A stretch of DNA of 64,000 bases, from NCBI GenBank assembly GCA_016187745.1, contig JACPJC010000005.1, positions 1-64,000 on the forward strand, written 5' to 3'. Each line of letters begins with the position of its first letter. Position 1 is the stretch's first letter. A program made the translations under genes and the position numbers. This DNA comes from Candidatus Iainarchaeum sp. GTDB lineage: Archaea; Iainarchaeota; Iainarchaeia; Iainarchaeales; JAXPJC01. Below are positions 9,451 to 38,448 of this stretch, piece by piece. The notes under the pieces were generated by a model. It searched no databases. It was not told the origin of the DNA and worked only from the letters and a program-made list of their open reading frames with translations.

Positions 9451-9747
9451 CTATTTTGCGCCCATCTTCCTCGTTTTATTGCATTCCAAGCAAGTTAAAA
9501 GCAGCATTTTCCCCTTAATGCGCAGCTTCGCGTTCTTTCCCAATTTCAAATAGGCTGAGCAGTATTTGCAGTAATTTGCTTTCAGTTCTTTGGGGATTTG
9601 CACATTATTGCGCTCCGCAATCTTCCTTGCAAGCTGCACATATCTCCTGCTCCGCTCGGGATGCTTTGAAAATTCATTCTCAGCCAGCTCAAAAAGCCGC
9701 CATATCCTCTCAACAGCAATCCTCTCAACAAAGCCCCTGTTCTGCAT
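9451..9747 (-). CDS. rnp4: RNase P protein component 4 (Rpp21)
   Basis: IAVERIWRLFELA, RRYVQLARKI, CxxC...CxxC zinc ribbon. Confidence 0.93.
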   Translation of the reverse strand: MQNRGFVERIAVERIWRLFELAENEFSKHPERSRRYVQLARKIAERNNVQIPKELKANYCKYCSAYLKLGKNAKLRIKGKMLLLTCLECNKTRKMGAK

Positions 9748-9748
9748 T

Positions 9749-10291
9749 TTATTTCCCCTTTTTATTTTTCATATACCAATCGAAAAAATCCAGAAACATT
9801 GAAGCAAAAGGCATTGATTCGCTTTTTACTGCTTTTCTAATTTCATCAATGCTGTAAAACCCGCCATCGGCAATTTCCATTCTGCTGAATTTCATTTTTC
9901 CATTATGCTTGCATTTAAACAATTGCACAAACTCGCTGTTGCAGTATTTGCCTTTCCCCCCATCAATTAATTTCTTTTTAACCAGTTTTTTAAGTTTTGG
10001 TTTTCTAATTTCCAATTCCTCCCGCAATCCGCGGATTGCAGCGCTTTCATAGTCCTCTCCTGCTTTAAGGTGCTCTCCCATAGCTCCGCCCCAGTGCAGA
10101 GGCGCAATGAACATGTTCTTGCTCCGCTTAACCATGAGCAGTTCCCCCTTTGGATTGAAAACCCACACATGAACAGCGCGGTGCAGCAATCCCTTTTCAT
10201 GCGCCTCCCGCAAAGTGGATTTCCCAATAATCTCATCCTTTGAATTCACAATATCAATAATTTCCCTTGATATGTCAGGCATTTTATTCAC
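9749..10291 (-). CDS. NUDIX hydrolase (IPP isomerase/YfcD-like)
   Basis: HRAVHVWVFN and GEDYESAAIRGLREELEI Nudix box. Confidence 0.88.
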   Translation of the reverse strand: MNKMPDISREIIDIVNSKDEIIGKSTLREAHEKGLLHRAVHVWVFNPKGELLMVKRSKNMFIAPLHWGGAMGEHLKAGEDYESAAIRGLREELEIRKPKLKKLVKKKLIDGGKGKYCNSEFVQLFKCKHNGKMKFSRMEIADGGFYSIDEIRKAVKSESMPFASMFLDFFDWYMKNKKGK

Positions 10292-10764
10292 AAGTCCTTC
10301 CGGTATATTTTTCCCGCAAGATAGTTCTCAATAACCTTCCTGCTAGGCTTGTACATGTTTTTCGGCAGTTCATCCAGCCCAAACCATTTCCATTCTGTAA
10401 TTTCATCCGGCTCCATTACCTGCGCCTCCCCCCCAAAATCCTCGCACAAAAAGCCAATGGTGATGAAATGCGCATCCTCAACCATTTCCTGCGTTATGCT
10501 TATCAATTTCAAATCCTTCACTTCAATCCCTGTTTCCTCCTTAACCTCATTCGCAGCGCGCTCCTCCAGAAACTCATGGAAGTGCAGCTTTCCCCCGGGC
10601 ATTGTCCATGTTCCTTCCCCGTGAAGCGCGGAATCCGCCTTCTGCGCATCAGAGTGCCTCAGCCCAAGCAGCACTTTCCCCGAGCGCAGCAGCATTACCC
10701 CTACCCCAACGCCGACTTTTGGCAATGGCTTTTCTTTATTCTCATGCGTTAGCTCTGGTGCCAT
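10288..10764 (-). CDS. NUDIX hydrolase (MutT/NUDT15-like)
   Basis: VGVGV, WTMPGG...EVKEETG, EPDEITEWKWF. Confidence 0.9.
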   Translation of the reverse strand: MAPELTHENKEKPLPKVGVGVGVMLLRSGKVLLGLRHSDAQKADSALHGEGTWTMPGGKLHFHEFLEERAANEVKEETGIEVKDLKLISITQEMVEDAHFITIGFLCEDFGGEAQVMEPDEITEWKWFGLDELPKNMYKPSRKVIENYLAGKIYRKDL

Positions 10765-11262
10765 CTAAATTCCTCTTTTAATCTTCAGAAATCTATTGGG
10801 TGCAGGCCTTTTTATAGGTTTTCTCCGCGCGGACTTTTGCAATCCGGAAAAAAGAGATTTGATGCCCGGACCAACATACACGCTATATGGGCGGTAATAT
10901 TTAAAGTTGTTTAGCGCAGCCATTACTTTTTCAAACGAATACTTTTTTACTGACATAAGATAGACCCCTGCAAATATATTGCTTGCATCCAAGCCTGCCA
11001 AACAAGTTATTGCAAACTTTCCCCTAATTCCTTTTGCAATTTTCAAAAAGTTATACGCTGTTTTGACGCCATATATGTCATTGTTTACAGCAGGTATCTG
11101 AATGAGTTTTATACCCGTGCCAGAAAACCTTTTTCTATCAGTTAAGTCAACTGGTGCTATGGTAAGCACAGTCTTTATATTCCGTTCTTTAAAAAACTCA
11201 GGGTTGTCTATATGCGCCCCGACAAAAACATTCGTGCCGGGGATTCTATCAACATCAAGCAT
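10765..11262 (-). CDS. Dual-specificity phosphatase-like orphan lacking the P-loop Arg
   Basis: IPGTNVFVG, IKTVLT, and ITCLAGLDAS versus consensus HCxAGxxRS. Confidence 0.7.
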   Translation of the reverse strand: MLDVDRIPGTNVFVGAHIDNPEFFKERNIKTVLTIAPVDLTDRKRFSGTGIKLIQIPAVNNDIYGVKTAYNFLKIAKGIRGKFAITCLAGLDASNIFAGVYLMSVKKYSFEKVMAALNNFKYYRPYSVYVGPGIKSLFSGLQKSARRKPIKRPAPNRFLKIKRGI

Positions 11263-11265
11263 AAA

Positions 11266-11453
11266 TGCGTCCGGTGGGATTCGAACCCACGTATGGAGCT
11301 AACCCCATAACTACAAACTTCCCTGAAAGAGCGGAAGTTATAAAAAATCGGCAATGAAATTATTTAACTTATATTCATTCCGCCGATTTTTTACAGAAAC
11401 TAAGGGTTTCTGATTATGGAGGGCTCCAGTCCTAACCACTAGACCACGGACGC
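11266..11453 (-). tRNA. tRNA-Gly(TCC) with 116-nt intron at 37/38 (intron 11301-11416)
   Basis: Acceptor GCGTCCG/CGGACGC-A, anticodon stem GGAGC/GCTCC, T arm GTGGG-TTCGAAT-CCCAC; relaxed BHB (CCTC pairs with GGGG, bulge TT|A). Confidence 0.92.
11341..11393. mobile_element. 53-bp MITE-like element with 12-bp terminal inverted repeats, nested in the tRNA-Gly intron
   Basis: TAAAAAATCGGC...GCCGATTTTTTA; absent from the homologous family A copy at 38263-38312. Confidence 0.55.
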
Positions 11454-11510
11454 CTCCTGAAATAATTATTTCAGAAAGCTTTTTATACTACTTTGCTTAT
11501 TGTTTAGGAC

Positions 11511-12458
11511 ATGGGCTGGGCGATTGAAAGCGCAATTGAAGTGTTCAAAAAGAGCCTTGACTACAAGAAGCTCTGGTTCTCCTATTTCCTTTTGCTTATA
11601 ATTTCACTCATTATCGGCGGAATAATACTGATAGCAGTAGTGGGCGTTCCAGCGGCAATGCTCTTCTCAAAATACCTTGTGCTGTATTCGCAGTATGCTT
11701 CTGCAACAGGCTCTTCGGAACTGGCTGCCATGGGAATAATCTTCGCATTGCTGCAGGCCCTGCCGCAGATTTTAACTGCGCTTGTTATAGTTGCAGTAGC
11801 ATATTTTGTAATTAATGCGCTCTGGGATGCATTCCTTTCAGGGCTGCAATTGAATATCGCGCTTGATTACCTCAAAAAGGCGAAATTCTCAATTGGAAGC
11901 GCCTCAGCAAAGACCAAGCCAAGATTCCTCACTTTGTTTGCCCTAAGCATAATATTTGGCATCCTGATTTTCCTTCTTGCATTGGTATTGTTCCTGCCAT
12001 TGCTGTTCTCGGCGCTGGGGATTATGAACCAGATTTCAACAGGGGCAGCTTCAGGGGCTTTGGCATCGCCGGGCGCTGACCTCTGGGTTAACATACTGCT
12101 TCAGACAGTATTTGCAATATTTGCATTTGTTGTTGTGATGCTCCTTGCAGCCCCTTTCCTTGCAATGATTGCGCCCGTTGCATTGTTTGAGAAGCGCGGC
12201 ATCGGCGCATCAATAGGGAGAATGATAGCGCTCGGCAAAAAGGACTATTTATCAACATTGGGCTATCTTATCCTTGTCGGGCTGCTCATGGCAGTTGTTT
12301 CCTGGGTAATCGGCTTCCTGCAGGCAGCGCTAGCGCTTATTCCTTTTGCAGGCATTGTGTTTTATATTGTTATAAGCGCAGTGCTCGGCACATGGTCCAT
12401 GGCATTCATAAGCCTAGCGCTCGCAAAGCTCTACCAGGTAAAAGCCCCAATGAAATAG
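11511..12458 (+). CDS. Polytopic membrane protein of unknown function
   Basis: About six hydrophobic helices; ALFEKRGIGASIGR pattern typical of GDPD-membrane-domain-like proteins. Confidence 0.75.
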   Translation: MGWAIESAIEVFKKSLDYKKLWFSYFLLLIISLIIGGIILIAVVGVPAAMLFSKYLVLYSQYASATGSSELAAMGIIFALLQALPQILTALVIVAVAYFVINALWDAFLSGLQLNIALDYLKKAKFSIGSASAKTKPRFLTLFALSIIFGILIFLLALVLFLPLLFSALGIMNQISTGAASGALASPGADLWVNILLQTVFAIFAFVVVMLLAAPFLAMIAPVALFEKRGIGASIGRMIALGKKDYLSTLGYLILVGLLMAVVSWVIGFLQAALALIPFAGIVFYIVISAVLGTWSMAFISLALAKLYQVKAPMK

Positions 12459-12490
12459 TTTTATTAACTTCGCATTTCTAATTCTCCCAT

Positions 12491-13147
12491 ATGCCAGGAA
12501 AAATAATTGCAATTGAGGGCGCTGACGCTTCAGGCAAATCAACGCAGTCAAAAATCCTTTCAGCGCGCCTGAAGAGGATTGGAAAAAATGCAGCAGTGAT
12601 TTCCTTCCCGCGCCACAATGAGTTTTTCGGCTCGCTTGTTGAAAGGCATCTGCGCGGGAAATTCGGCAATCCGCACGAACTTCCAGCGGAATTCTGCGCA
12701 CTGCTCTATTCCGTTGACCGCTACAATATGCTGAATGAAATAAAATCTGCGCTGAAGGAAGGCAAAATCCTCATAATGGACCGCTACATACAGTCAAACT
12801 TCGCCTTCCAGACAGCAAAATTCACAAATCCTGCGGAGCAGGACTCCTTCCTACAGTGGATGCAGATTGTGGAAAGCAGGATGCCGAAAGCCGATGCTGT
12901 AATATTCCTTGAAATGCCGGCTGAATTTTCCCAGAGGCTCCTGAAAAGGGAAAAAAAGAAAGCGGATTTGCATGAATCGAACCTAGCGTACCAGAAGCGC
13001 GTACTTGCAATTTATGAAAGGCTGGCGCGCTCCGGGAACTGGCTGCAGATAAAATGCGCGCTCAGGCAGCAGAATGGCAGATGGAAACTAAAATCAAGGA
13101 AGCAGGTTGCAGAGGAAATCTGGAACGGGATAAGGAAGAAAATTTGA
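12491..13147 (+). CDS. tmk: Thymidylate kinase
   Basis: IEGADASGKSTQ, LLYSVDR, MDRY, DLHE. Confidence 0.95.
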   Translation: MPGKIIAIEGADASGKSTQSKILSARLKRIGKNAAVISFPRHNEFFGSLVERHLRGKFGNPHELPAEFCALLYSVDRYNMLNEIKSALKEGKILIMDRYIQSNFAFQTAKFTNPAEQDSFLQWMQIVESRMPKADAVIFLEMPAEFSQRLLKREKKKADLHESNLAYQKRVLAIYERLARSGNWLQIKCALRQQNGRWKLKSRKQVAEEIWNGIRKKI

Positions 13148-13879
13148 CTATTTGACAGACGGCCTTCCGCTTGGCAATCTAAGTTTTCTATTTATTGCTT
13201 TTGAAACCCCATTTTGTGAAGATGTCTTAACTTGCTTGACTTCAACGCCTTCCTTTGCAAGCCTGTTAACAACTTCTGCCAGGATTCTTTTTGCTGTTGT
13301 TGTCTTATCTACCCTGAAAGTCCTTGCAATCCAACTTAAAGAATAAATCTGACGCGGGTATCTCCTTATGTGTGCCTCCAGAGCAGCACGAGCCCCTTCA
13401 AGCCTCAATTTTTCAAGCTTGCTTTTTGAGGGTCTTATTTTGTGTTTATCAATAACAATTCTTTCCACGGTTTGACGCGATACTCCAAATTTTTTTGCGA
13501 TTTCAGTTGGCGTTAGGCTAAGGTTGTTCCTGGCAAAAGACAAAATCCTTTTTTGTGCGTCCTCACTGATAGCTGCAAAGCGCCCATATGGCATTCTGGA
13601 TTTTTTTTTATCATTTGCAAGGGTTCTTTTGAATGAAAAGTCCCTCTGTTTTTCAAATTTTTCCAACAAACGCTCTGCAGAGTGCCATCCTATATTAAGG
13701 TCTTTCGCCATTTTGTTTGCAGAAACAGCAAGCCCCTTTTCAGCGGCATTCATTACATAATTAAGGGCTCTGGCGTGGGCATCCATCCAGCGGCTTGCTG
13801 CAATTTCCCTTCGTTTCTCTATCATTGGGCGCATACCTTTAGGATAGCTCCCAATTGGTTTCGGCTTTCTTGTGCGCAT
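13148..13879 (-). CDS. Basic multi-HTH orphan protein
   Basis: Three HTH-like segments (SANKMAKDLNIGWHSAERLL, TPTEIAKKFGVSRQTVERI, SLSWIARTFRVD). Confidence 0.7.
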   Translation of the reverse strand: MRTRKPKPIGSYPKGMRPMIEKRREIAASRWMDAHARALNYVMNAAEKGLAVSANKMAKDLNIGWHSAERLLEKFEKQRDFSFKRTLANDKKKSRMPYGRFAAISEDAQKRILSFARNNLSLTPTEIAKKFGVSRQTVERIVIDKHKIRPSKSKLEKLRLEGARAALEAHIRRYPRQIYSLSWIARTFRVDKTTTAKRILAEVVNRLAKEGVEVKQVKTSSQNGVSKAINRKLRLPSGRPSVK

Positions 13880-13882
13880 AAA

Positions 13883-14025
13883 TGCGACCGCCGGGATTCG
13901 GACCCGGGTCCTAACCTATTTGCTATGAAGATTATTTTATCTTTGGATAACCCTTAGACTTTCTCTTTTTCTAAAAGAGAAAGGCTTGGTGGCAAGGTCA
14001 GATCCTACCACTAGACTACAGTCGC
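13883..14025 (-). tRNA. tRNA-Gly(GCC) with 72-nt intron at 37/38 (intron 13918-13989)
   Basis: Acceptor GCGACTG/CGGTCGC-A, anticodon loop TT-GCC-A; BHB central helix TTGC/GCAA, bulge AT|A. T loop reads TCCGAAT. Confidence 0.92.
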
Positions 14026-14054
14026 TTATAGTAGAATTAAATATGGGAGCCTTT

Positions 14055-15767
14055 TTATCTTTTGCGCAAAAGCAGGATTGCAAGCGCAATGGCAATTATT
14101 GCAAGAACAGCGATTGCCGCAATAAGCACCAGATCGATATTCCCCGGAACTGCGGGAATGCCCCCCGCGCCTTCCCCCTGCCCCGCGCCTGCTGCATTTC
14201 CCTCTCCCCCTGTTCCTTCAGGCTTTTCTGTCCGCTTCTCCTCAAGGATTTCAATGTTCTGCAGATGCGCAATCCCCGGCCCGGAAATATCCACTTTCAT
14301 CGCCCCGTAATTCCAGTCCGCAAAAGAGTATGAAAGCGTTTTCTGCGTGTTTGAAGGAATCTGCTCAGCCGCGCTTCCTGAAATTCCAACACCGCTGATG
14401 TTTATGTCAGCGATTCCGTCCTGCATTCCGGAATTCTTCAGGATTACCTTTATTGTGAGCTTCCCATCCGAAATTTCAGGCACTATTGCGACCAGTTTTA
14501 TGTTTGCAGAATCTGAAACTTCCCCCCCGGCAGCATAAACTGAAACATTCCCCTCAATCTCCTGGTCAAAGCCCCTTATCGCATATCCGTAAATGTAATT
14601 CAATCCCGCAGTATCTGGCGCATCTGCATTCCAGGAAAGCGTTTTCCGCTCCGCTGGATTCAGCAGAACAAGCCTTTCCGCGCTTTCATAAACAAACTGC
14701 TCATGCAGCCTCATTTCAATCGGCGCAATGAATTTTCCATCAGTAAGGTTTGCAACTTCAAGATTGAAATCAAAGTTCTGCCGGCCCTTCAAATCCCCCG
14801 GGAACATCACATTCAGGCCCGTGTATTTCGAGAATTTGCTGAAATCATTCACAATCACATCCTCGCCCCTGTCAATTTTGACGCTTATGCCCTGCGTTGT
14901 CGTTATGGAATCAACGGCCTGGCTCTGGTCAAGCAGCTTTGCAAGCACCAAATGCGTCCCATCAACAAATCCCGCCTCAAGGTAAGTGGCGTCAAGCGCA
15001 ATCCACCCCGCTCCGGGAACAAAGAATTCCAGCCATGCGTGCGTATCCCATTTCTTTCCGCTGTAAACATATCCTACGATGTATCTTGTGGGAATCCCTC
15101 GCGCGCGGAGCAGCGCAGCTGTCAGGTTTGAGAACTCATCGCATGTTCCCTTCCTTACATCCAGGACTTCCTTTGCCGAGAGGACAGTCGTGAAATAATC
15201 CAAATCATAGGTTATGTATCCGTGCGCAAATTCCGCGGCCTTTATCGCATTTTCAAGAACTGAATTTGAGTTCAGGGTAGAAAACGCAAGGCTCCTTATC
15301 CCTGAATCATTTGACTGTATGTATGTGCTCTCCTGCAGGAATTGGGCTTCCTCATCTATCGGAGCGCCCAAATCATAGTCCTTCAGGTCAAAAACCTTGG
15401 AATTCGTCCTTATGCGCGCATTTATCGTGTATTTGAAATCCGCGCTTTCAATATTGCCTATTTTGAATATCGCATATTTATTCCCAAGCCCATCAGTTTC
15501 ATGCGTTGCATTTATCGCCCTGCTCCCAATCTGCAGCGCCTCACTAATCCCAAGCACCTCCTGGGCTTCATTGCTGGAAAACGTCTGCAGCTTTATCTCA
15601 ATCGTATCCCCCGCGCCTATGCTTCCGGAAATTGCCCCATCCCCAACAATAATTACATTAACATCCGCGCTCTGCACCCTTACAGGATTCCCCATCTCAA
15701 GCGCATATGCGTTTGAAAGAATAATTGCGGAAATAGCCAAAATAAAAAAATTTCTGATTGCGCTCAT
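14055..15767 (-). CDS. Secreted, membrane-anchored transglutaminase-like protein
   Basis: Signal peptide, GTCDEFS...HAW...LDAT Cys-His-Asp triad, Ig-like domains, C-terminal TM followed by RKR. Confidence 0.9.
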   Translation of the reverse strand: MSAIRNFFILAISAIILSNAYALEMGNPVRVQSADVNVIIVGDGAISGSIGAGDTIEIKLQTFSSNEAQEVLGISEALQIGSRAINATHETDGLGNKYAIFKIGNIESADFKYTINARIRTNSKVFDLKDYDLGAPIDEEAQFLQESTYIQSNDSGIRSLAFSTLNSNSVLENAIKAAEFAHGYITYDLDYFTTVLSAKEVLDVRKGTCDEFSNLTAALLRARGIPTRYIVGYVYSGKKWDTHAWLEFFVPGAGWIALDATYLEAGFVDGTHLVLAKLLDQSQAVDSITTTQGISVKIDRGEDVIVNDFSKFSKYTGLNVMFPGDLKGRQNFDFNLEVANLTDGKFIAPIEMRLHEQFVYESAERLVLLNPAERKTLSWNADAPDTAGLNYIYGYAIRGFDQEIEGNVSVYAAGGEVSDSANIKLVAIVPEISDGKLTIKVILKNSGMQDGIADINISGVGISGSAAEQIPSNTQKTLSYSFADWNYGAMKVDISGPGIAHLQNIEILEEKRTEKPEGTGGEGNAAGAGQGEGAGGIPAVPGNIDLVLIAAIAVLAIIAIALAILLLRKR

Positions 15768-16300
15768 TTTCCCGCCTTTTTCCTCTCAATTGCTATCCCA
15801 TTTTTTGCAATTTTTTCAGCATCCCTGACTTTAGAGTTCAGAATTTCCACTTCCTTATCACTCAACTCAATTTTATCCATGAATCTTAATAACCTTTCCC
15901 GCGAATGGGAGGCTTCCCTTTCGGCTATTTCAAGCTTCTTTGCAAAAAAGTCCATATTCTCAAAATCCCTGACCATGTTGATCGGGGAGTTATGTATTTC
16001 AAGCATACGAAATTTATTCTCAAGATAGATTTTGTTTGCCAGAAGGCGCTCCAATTCCCTCGTTTGTTTTGGATTGAGCAATTTGAAATTGCTTCTCCTG
16101 ACGGCCTCATTTGCAATGACCTTTGCAAAAACCCCATATCTAAATACATTGATGCCAAAATCAGCCTTTGTGGATTTTTCCCCCCTATAAATTGCGGGAA
16201 TTCTCCTTGCAGTTTCTCTCCATATCCTTATTGCAGCACCAGGAGTAAGTTTTCCGCGCCTCAAGCGGTAAAACGGGCGCTTTGAAGATTTTGGAGCCAT
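15764..16300 (-). CDS. Basic orphan protein downstream of tRNA-Val (MAPKSSKRPFYRLRR...)
   Basis: Start trimmed to ATG 16300 because the longer ORF overlaps the tRNA; stop overlaps the next start (ATGA). Confidence 0.65.
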   Translation of the reverse strand: MAPKSSKRPFYRLRRGKLTPGAAIRIWRETARRIPAIYRGEKSTKADFGINVFRYGVFAKVIANEAVRRSNFKLLNPKQTRELERLLANKIYLENKFRMLEIHNSPINMVRDFENMDFFAKKLEIAEREASHSRERLLRFMDKIELSDKEVEILNSKVRDAEKIAKNGIAIERKKAGK

Positions 16301-16316
16301 TGTTTCTTCCTGGAAT

Positions 16317-16467
16317 TGGGCCCGGGCGGGATCGAACCGCCGACCTTCGGCTTGTTTACAATTTCCCAAGGGATTAATTTTCTTTTGAACCCCAGGGCCT
16401 TTTCTTTTTTATAAAAAGAAAAGGGGCTGCTGTAAAGCCGACGTCATAGCCGCTAGACGACGAGCCC
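16317..16467 (-). tRNA. tRNA-Val(TAC) with 78-nt intron at 37/38 (intron 16353-16430)
   Basis: Acceptor GGGCTCG/CGGGCCC-A, anticodon stem TCGGC/GCCGA; BHB helix TTTA/TAAA, bulge CA|A. Confidence 0.93.
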
Positions 16468-16601
16468 TTTTTCCGTATTAATGAGCTGATGCAAAATATA
16501 TTTAAACAGAGCAAGCAAAGATTCCCGGAACCCATGCGAAACGCTTATAAATAACCTCAGCATAATTTAATCATTTGCAGGAAAATAAAAGAGGTGCCGA
16601 T

Positions 16602-27604: not shown

Positions 27605-27654
27605 AGCCCCTTTTCTTTTTGAAAAAGAAAAGGCCCTTGGGTTCAAAAGAAAAA
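27605..27654 (+). repeat. Repeat family B copy (AGCCCCTTTTCTTTTTGAAAAAGAAAAGGCCCTTGGGTTCAAAAGAAAAA)
   Basis: Almost identical to the tRNA-Val intron core (16428-16377, minus strand). Confidence 0.85.
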
Positions 27655-38315: not shown

Positions 38316-38387
38316 GGACCCATCGGCTAATGGACAGGCCAGACGGCTTCGGACCGTCCAATGGGGGTTCGATTCCCTCTGGGTCCA
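38316..38387 (+). tRNA. tRNA-Arg(TCG), intron-less
   Basis: GGACCCA/TGGGTCC acceptor, GACGG-CT-TCG-GA-CCGTC anticodon arm, GGGGG-TTCGATT-CCCTC T arm. Confidence 0.95.
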
Positions 38388-38396
38388 ACCACCAAT

Positions 38397-38448
38397 CCCT
38401 TTTCTTTTAGGAAAAGAAAAGGTCTAGGTTTTACCCCAAAAGAAAAAT
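38397..38448 (+). repeat. Repeat family B copy immediately downstream of tRNA-Arg
   Basis: CCCTTTTCTTTTAGGAAAAGAAAAGGTCTAGGTTTTACCCCAAAAGAAAAAT. Confidence 0.8.

Follow-up and report, generated by a model that had tools for sequence, protein, structure and literature searches.

The window analysed here is the initial 64 kb of contig C1 in a Candidatus Iainarchaeum sp. assembly (964 kb in 10 contigs, 45% G+C). We refer to this source genome as G000 and to its contigs as C1, C3, C4, C5 and C8; about 1,050 open reading frames (ORFs) were called in it. On the minus strand of the window, three intron-bearing tRNA genes are each followed closely by an ORF. tRNA-Gly(UCC) (11266..11453) leads into P0001 (10765..11262), a lineage-restricted protein of 165 amino acids (aa) that resembles dual-specificity phosphatases. 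tRNA-Gly(GCC) (13883..14025) leads into P0002 (13148..13879; 243 aa), a helix-turn-helix (HTH) DNA-binding protein, and tRNA-Val(UAC) (16317..16467) leads into P0003 (15764..16300; 178 aa), which belongs to no family. Plain ARAGORN and Rfam at its gathering score agreed on tRNA-Arg (38316-38387) as the sole tRNA in the window. The three minus-strand genes emerged as additional tRNAs once ARAGORN was run with introns permitted, which supplied their boundaries; identities, exons and introns were assigned by eye. Note that ARAGORN named several tRNA genes wrongly, reporting Gly(UCC) as Arg(ccg), Val as Cys(aca), tRNA-Arg(UCU) as Ser(aga) and tRNA-Pro(GGG) as Val(aac). For the whole of G000 it returned 46 tRNA calls, or 45 after removal of one false call. 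A ‘tRNA-Ser(tga)’ called by ARAGORN at C5:20623-20754, in the 5' region of the gene for RNA polymerase A', is probably false: it did not reappear when the excised stretch was analysed, and the conserved N-terminus of the RNA polymerase A' ORF extends upstream of it.

All three tRNA genes lack an encoded CCA end. tRNA-Gly(UCC), the single gene of its kind, carries an intron of ~115 nt in the anticodon loop and ends with discriminator A at 11266; a TTT spacer (11263..11265) separates it from the ATG of P0001 at 11262. tRNA-Gly(GCC) consists of a 5' exon (13990-14025), a 72-nt intron at position 37/38 (13918-13989) and a 3' exon (13883-13917), and its discriminator A at 13883 is likewise followed by TTT (13880..13882) and the ATG of P0002 at 13879. 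tRNA-Val(UAC), with an intron of ~76 nt at 37/38, has its discriminator A at 16317, followed by ATT, and a 16-nt spacer precedes the ATG of P0003 at 16300. The first-pass annotation of this DNA had placed the start codons 3, 3 and 16 nt past the discriminators and had described a common GCA-TTT-ATG ending for both Gly genes; the sequence agrees exactly with these positions and distances, and the shared ending is present at both junctions. The GCA of this ending comes from the Gly acceptor end, and the identical 3-nt spacer is only mildly unusual, since TTT directly follows 10 of the 46 ARAGORN tRNA calls in G000. The ATGs at 11262 and 13879 are the earliest possible starts after an in-frame stop.

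We scored promoters with a TATA matrix (a position weight matrix) trained on 340 first genes, defined as ORFs whose upstream spacer measures 70 nt or more, over the region -46..-18 from the ATG. TATA-like starts of these first genes peak at -30..-26 from the ATG (93 matches vs about 15-35 in the other bins). Because this peak lies only ~30 nt before the ATG, first genes are probably leaderless as their usual mode. The matrix found no TATA-like site at -46..-18 of the three tRNA-adjacent ORFs. Their scores (-5.7, -6.8 and -6.9 for P0001, P0002 and P0003), at the 5th-8th percentile relative to first genes, are typical of inner operon genes. Together with the spacers of 3, 3 and 16 nt, these scores uphold the earlier claim that the ORFs have no room for promoters of their own. 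The tRNA genes themselves have TATA-like hexamers at -33 to -39, as is seen ahead of 31/46 ARAGORN calls. The TATA box of tRNA-Gly(UCC) lies at 11480..11487 on the minus strand (TATA-like match at -33). That of tRNA-Gly(GCC) reads GATAAAAAG (14051..14059, minus strand) and overlaps the stop codon of a 570-aa ORF, and a TATA-like block stands upstream of tRNA-Val (16494..16507, minus strand; matches at -39 to -34). Both Gly tRNA genes share the motif ATAAAAAG, the end of which is 25 nt from tRNA position 1 in each case.

Terminators are not apparent between tRNA and ORF. Runs of at least five T within 30 nt downstream were found for 0/9 ORF-adjacent tRNAs in G000 vs 14/37 other ARAGORN calls. 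A run of five T does occur inside the tRNA-Val intron, where transcription must read through it. With respect to translation signals, Shine-Dalgarno (SD)-like motifs precede 22% of first genes and 36% of tightly packed inner genes, at a background of 11% inside coding sequence. The 16S rRNA 3' end in G000 reads ..GGATCACCTCCT. No GGAG, GAGG or GGTG was found upstream of the ATG at the two Gly junctions, and the tRNA-Val spacer contains AGGA as its sole SD match to the 16S rRNA 3' end. The RNase Z products predicted at the Gly junctions would thus have a 5' untranslated region of a few bases and no SD, as leaderless messages do; P0003, with its 16-nt spacer, does not fall into this class. The leaderless state of the Gly-junction mRNAs, if real, would be due to processing rather than initiation.

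The genome encodes the enzymes needed for tRNA maturation: RNase Z (C1:94771-95667; 345.7 bits, cut-off 293), the archaeal CCA-adding enzyme (390 bits), the splicing endonuclease EndA (87 bits) and archaeal RNase P RNA (114 bits), with the CCA enzyme and EndA also exceeding their cut-offs. CCA-less tRNA precursors are the substrates that RNase Z cuts after the discriminator. The tRNAs and their ORFs thus lie on the same strand, with CCA-less tRNAs, no room for a second promoter, no terminator between them and the processing enzymes at hand. The presence of these enzymes, together with the leaderless promoter signature of first genes, strongly implies co-transcription.

We propose that each of the three tRNA genes, with its promoter, forms the first member of a co-directional transcription unit. 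RNA polymerase would start a few bases before each tRNA and read through the three T residues or the 16-nt spacer into the protein genes. RNase P would cleave the precursor at the tRNA 5' end and RNase Z immediately past the discriminator, and the tRNA would be spliced by EndA and receive its CCA. The RNase Z cut would also make the 5' end of the downstream mRNA. At the two Gly genes this mRNA would begin UUU-AUG with a 5' monophosphate and be translated leaderless; at tRNA-Val the message would retain a 16-nt leader. We hold this explanation as a whole with moderate confidence. Its parts differ in strength: judged from gene order and signals, tRNA and ORF are very likely co-transcribed, and it is reasonably probable that the RNase Z product is the mRNA that is translated. 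A search for RNA sequencing runs over the 5.9-kb stretch 10700-16600 listed none. For P0001 and its operon, transcription from the tRNA promoter appears to be the only simple way to be expressed.

The Gly(UCC) junction recurs outside G000. The metagenome contig L002 encodes P0004, which is likewise 165 aa long and 54% identical to P0001. Upstream of P0004 lies a tRNA-Gly(UCC) whose exons are 100% identical to those of the window copy and whose introns are unrelated. The junction is the same (A-TTT-ATG), and the downstream order is NUDIX (one gene) and then Rpp21. In the window, P0001 is followed on the minus strand by two NUDIX genes (10288-10764 and 9749-10291) and the gene for the RNase P subunit Rpp21/Rpr2 (9451-9747), with intergenic gaps of 0, -4 and 1 nt. 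A profile search of 1.84 billion representatives added P0007 (51% identical) and P0008 (37% identical) as public gene calls. Before the family Met both read ..LHTWVRIPPDAFM, which is the window's tRNA 3' exon followed by TTT and ATG, all translated in frame; the TTT spacer appears as Phe in these run-through calls. The start codon thus lies one codon (Phe) past the discriminator in 4/4 members with inferable upstream sequence, although these are four kindred lineages and do not amount to a statistical test. Retention of the 3-nt spacer down to 37% protein identity argues for constraint and fixes the start codon. Judged from these comparisons, the Gly-UCC junction is old and syntenic, and its conservation, not the spacing itself, is what exceeds chance. 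The public predictions for P0007 and P0008, in crossing the tRNA-Gly 3' exon, gain 15-44 spurious N-terminal residues; these are an annotation artefact of undetected intron-bearing tRNAs, and such run-through N-termini offer a handy route to tRNA-ORF junctions from protein databases alone.

Two further features of tRNA-Gly(UCC) deserve mention. The base at position 33, where U is near-universal in tRNAs, is C in the window copy (anticodon loop region 11415-11424) and also in the relative's gene (L002 2410-2420); two other families have intron-less Gly(UCC) genes with U33. The L002 gene has a second intron, in the D-loop, and its first 14 nt are shared with a same-strand ORF of 296 aa that contains a LAGLIDADG domain (L002 1480-2400).

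Tight tRNA-ORF adjacency is found elsewhere in the genome and the order. In G000, 9/45 tRNAs have a same-strand ORF of at least 165 codons within 27 nt downstream. Three of the nine ORFs could be clearly identified, each behind an SD-bearing spacer: tRNA-His is followed by hisS after 24 nt (C3:4802-6174), tRNA-Arg(UCU) by argS after about 20 nt (C4:16311-18182) and two tRNA-Pro genes by proB, encoding glutamate 5-kinase, after 11 nt (C8:3860-5020). ileS lies 74 nt past tRNA-Ile, behind a copy of the mini hairpin element described below (C8:37094-40138). Order-wide loci of these kinds were collected as L093-L152. Among the best 30 hisS loci of 42 match rows in 41 genomes of the order, 24 have a same-strand tRNA-His(GUG) upstream, at no more than 50 nt in 13 and no more than 24 nt in 9; many of these spacers contain GGTGAT or GGAGG, complementary to the 16S 3' end. 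In a corresponding survey of argS (best 30 loci of 65 rows in 61 genomes of the order), tRNA-Arg(UCU) lies within 1.5 kb upstream at 14/30 loci, and the nearest tRNA is never of another kind. We estimate that a cognate synthetase would be the next gene by chance far less than once per genome, at about 1,050 ORF calls. The promoter-less spacers between tRNA and synthetase provide independent comparative evidence that tRNA and message form one RNA in this clade.

We also searched 196 genomes of the order, including G000, for the tRNA-Gly 3'-end pattern with up to 2 mismatches, which gave 27 rows outside G000. Two of these (L031 and L035), which represent two additional families, are tRNA-Gly(UCC) genes without an intron; the ORFs behind them start at 3 nt (TTC) and 4 nt and encode 276 aa (methyltransferase domain) and 177 aa, respectively. 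Another two of the 27 are tRNA-Arg(UCU) genes with arginyl-tRNA synthetase 14 and 19 nt downstream. The first-pass annotation had regarded the genes behind the three window tRNAs as accessory. This description does not suit P0001, which heads a conserved operon with NUDIX, NUDIX and Rpp21, nor the hisS, argS and proB genes that follow tRNAs elsewhere.

The same annotation had called all three ORFs orphans, which applies fully to P0002 alone: no relative was found among 5.8 billion clusters. P0003 has two close relatives, P0005 (88% identity) and another at 84%, of the same length or shorter. P0001 belongs to a small family, with 18 proteins at E≤0.001 in the profile search. Among 41 genomes searched, P0001 was found only in G000 itself, in a set without family- or genus-level relatives of G000. 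P0001 matches PF00782 (DSPc) weakly (24 bits vs a cut-off of 33.5), and its homolog P0004 carries a precomputed PF00782 match. Cys C87 is invariant, but Ala, Thr or Val stands at +5 in all 5 aligned members, which lack the Arg of the C-x5-R motif. C-x5-R is the catalytic motif of Cys-based phosphatases. The family is always seen together with NUDIX and Rpp21 genes, and one may guess at a role at RNA 5' ends.

Scans of Pfam, NCBIfam and PHROGs gave generic HTH matches for P0002 and nothing for P0003. The protein atlas gave HTH leads scoring below 0.9 for P0002 and no usable match for P0003. P0002 also resembles, weakly, DNA-binding domains of transposases and excisionases. A codon model trained on long ORFs gave each of the three a coding score better in its own frame than in the five others. 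Ranked among the ORF calls, these scores fall at the 27th (P0001, 0.19), 12th (P0002, 0.09) and 20th (P0003) percentile. As to the surroundings, the stop codon of P0002 abuts that of the convergent thymidylate kinase gene (tmk; 12491-13147, plus strand). P0003 overlaps by 4 nt the gene for a 570-aa transglutaminase-like protein (14055..15767, minus strand), which stops 29 nt ahead of tRNA-Gly(GCC) with no run of five or more T in between.

Several observations weigh against the proposed scheme and are best considered together with other explanations. RNAs with a 5' monophosphate are preferred by archaeal 5'-3' exonucleases, and the RNase Z product might be short-lived. This would favour co-transcription in which ribosomes read the precursor, either unprocessed or processed in another way, or in which the mRNA 5' end is set by a different nuclease; the role of RNase Z would then be confined to maturing the tRNA, with decay of the trailer as a possible consequence. 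The AGGA in the tRNA-Val spacer, a weak SD match, points in the same direction. At the Gly junctions, however, the AUG follows a stable acceptor stem at a distance of 4 nt and has no SD-like motif upstream, so that there is no obvious signal for internal initiation on the precursor, and the preservation of the 3-nt spacing in distant family members indicates that the exact distance from cut to AUG seems to matter. We consider translation from such a precursor rather unlikely. Two introns contain matches to the TATA matrix, at -88 from the P0001 ATG (score 5.2) and -64 from the P0002 ATG (score 5.1), as would be seen if promoters inside the tRNA genes, in A/T-rich introns, drove the ORFs separately; the leader would then comprise the last part of the intron plus the tRNA 3' exon. 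However, the matrix carries little information and the introns are rich in A/T. No such match precedes P0003 (best 2.3) or occurs in the unrelated L002 intron (best 1.7), and no TATA-like site was found inside the intron-less L031 and L035 tRNAs, which have the same 3-4 nt junction. Moreover, the leader made from an intron promoter would carry no SD. Independent promoters of this kind are improbable.

Tight spacing is also the norm in this genome: gaps between same-strand ORF calls have a median of 16 nt and are no more than 5 nt in 39% of 635 pairs, and adjacency alone is what compaction would give. In the complete 840-kb genome G002, from another family of the order, an ORF lies within 10 nt of 0/39 tRNAs, and tRNA neighbours keep spacers of about 30 nt with their own TATA-like boxes. 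Short tRNA-to-ATG distances, which the first-pass annotation had wished to see surveyed, thus recur within G000 and in two other families but not in G002, and the extreme 3-nt junction is on this account lineage-specific. P0002, in addition to its lack of relatives and low coding score, could also start at either of two later in-frame Met codons (residues 16 and 19). If adjacency were a by-product of compaction, transcription could mostly end after the tRNA, and P0002 or P0003 could be silent or not a real gene; the scarcity of relatives and low score percentiles of these two ORFs are in line with this. On the other hand, TTT is not terminator-like, while tRNAs without a downstream ORF often have runs of five or more T. 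All three ORFs score best in their own frame, the P0001 operon with its RNase P subunit is conserved together with the junction, and P0003 is translationally linked by its overlap to the transglutaminase-like gene. We therefore regard compaction with silent ORFs as quite improbable. tRNA genes are common integration sites, and the orphan P0002 with its weak transposase and excisionase domain matches might be taken for cargo of a mobile element integrated at a tRNA 3' end, as might the other ORFs. The first-pass annotation had noticed no duplicated tRNA 3' end (att), and an assembly-wide repeat search bore this out for all three tRNAs: the 3' ends were not repeated outside other tRNA genes, whether as the exact last 12 nt, as 16 nt with 1 mismatch or as 22-25 nt with 3-4 mismatches. 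No integrase or transposase catalytic domain was found in the Pfam, NCBIfam and PHROGs scans of the ORFs. Housekeeping genes (thymidylate kinase, NUDIX, Rpp21) directly adjoin, and the Gly-UCC junction is old and syntenic. Integration at the tRNA genes is largely refuted by the repeat search and the absence of a recombinase match, and we regard it as very improbable.

Small repeated hairpins were observed near tRNAs. A mini element of about 60-75 nt, tightly folded, with a pyrimidine-run hairpin and a purine-rich tail, occurs in 26 oriented copies genome-wide. Copies in the window are located at 13959-13983 (in the Gly-GCC intron), 16399-16423 (in the Val intron), 27610-27632 and 38399-38421. 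Besides tRNA introns (Gly-GCC, Val and others), its sites include the tRNA-Glu leader, gaps that separate tRNAs from ORF starts, positions immediately downstream of tRNA 3' ends, and one 3 nt past the 16S rRNA 3' end. Its constant position beside the ends of stable RNAs hints at an RNA-processing role or a target preference. A second family of small hairpins has arms CAGAAAC / GTTTCTG and ends in ..CTGATT. Members stand directly before several tRNA 5' ends (G000 C1:38285-38315 and C1:137290-137320, and L031), and one is inverted inside the tRNA-Gly(UCC) intron (11395-11416). Finally, the A/T block at 11479-11487, which contains the minus-strand TATA box of tRNA-Gly(UCC), seems to double as a plus-strand TATA box for a membrane-protein gene. 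The ATG of that gene at 11511 is about 28 nt from the block, and the gene would be leaderless.

The arrangement resembles several known systems. In mitochondrial tRNA punctuation, polycistronic transcripts are cut by RNase P and RNase Z (PMC3790967, PMC8437803). As there, tRNAs in the window adjoin mRNA genes with at most a few bases in between, tRNA excision would define mRNA ends, and the mRNAs would be leaderless. Unlike in mitochondria, the setting is a cellular archaeal chromosome, the tRNAs apparently have their own TATA boxes, only 9/45 tRNAs are involved and introns are long. In N. equitans, according to the relevant section of the report, RNase Z cleavage of a tRNA-Val/C-D small RNA (sRNA) precursor makes the sRNA 5' end (PMC3491384). 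That organism, as described there, is also a small-genome archaeon with a gene immediately 3' of a tRNA and RNase Z proposed to make its 5' end. The downstream product in N. equitans is a small guide RNA, whereas here it is a protein-coding message with its start codon 3 nt past the cut. In T. kodakarensis, a tRNA-Lys lies inside the 5' untranslated region of TK0306 and is apparently co-transcribed with it, as the corresponding part of the source states (PMC4247193). It shares with the window genes an archaeal tRNA and a downstream protein gene served by one start site. It differs in having a 159-nt leader in which the tRNA is embedded; that part of the source implies no leaderless product and reports neither conservation nor cognate pairing.

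Plant mitochondrial mRNAs contain tRNA-like t-elements processed by tRNase Z (PMC1920247). The likeness lies in an RNase Z cut at a tRNA-shaped structure that makes the 5' end of the next RNA. In Haloferax, the 5' end of 5S rRNA is reportedly made by tRNase Z at a tRNA-like element, and engineered release of CRISPR RNA (crRNA) via a tRNA-like element is said to have been achieved there as well. t-elements are only tRNA-like, whereas the structures here are the sole genes for essential tRNAs. In Methanosarcina, the tRNA-Pyl gene pylT stands directly before its synthetase gene pylS, and bacteria have tRNA-tufB operons. In both of these, as here, a tRNA leads an operon of translation-related genes, and pylT-pylS is a cognate pair like the His, Arg and Ile pairs. 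Unlike in those operons, the arrangement here involves standard amino acids, with several pairs per genome, conservation throughout the order for His and Arg, and spacers down to 3 nt. A literature search, with most subscription journals and supplements outside its reach, found precedents for tRNA co-transcripts. It brought up no account of archaeal leaderless mRNAs whose 5' ends are made by RNase Z, and none of cognate pairs of tRNA and synthetase genes in these lineages; work on DPANN tRNA introns and splicing endonucleases contributed nothing on the junction.

If the proposed scheme is true, one enzyme matures both tRNA and mRNA in a free-standing cellular genome. Besides initiation, processing would then be a source of leaderless messages, a point of relevance to the start of translation in archaea. 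There is also a practical consequence: standard tRNA finders miss intron-bearing tRNAs and public gene calls cross them, as for P0007 and P0008, and start codons and ‘hypothetical’ N-termini are miscalled in such genomes for this reason. For the order at large, we tentatively put forward a broader possibility, somewhat short of an even chance. tRNA genes may lead operons for tRNA-related proteins (HisRS, ArgRS, IleRS, the RNase P subunit, and proline biosynthesis after tRNA-Pro), with RNase Z as a general maker of mRNA 5' ends. This would be an archaeal chromosomal counterpart of mitochondrial tRNA punctuation, tying tRNA dose to enzyme dose, with 5'-monophosphate leaderless messages at the 3-4 nt junctions. 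The cognate tRNA-synthetase pairs would suggest a simple promoter-level co-regulation of a tRNA and its charging enzyme, without T-box-type control, and the arrangement would bear on how reduced genomes economise on promoters.

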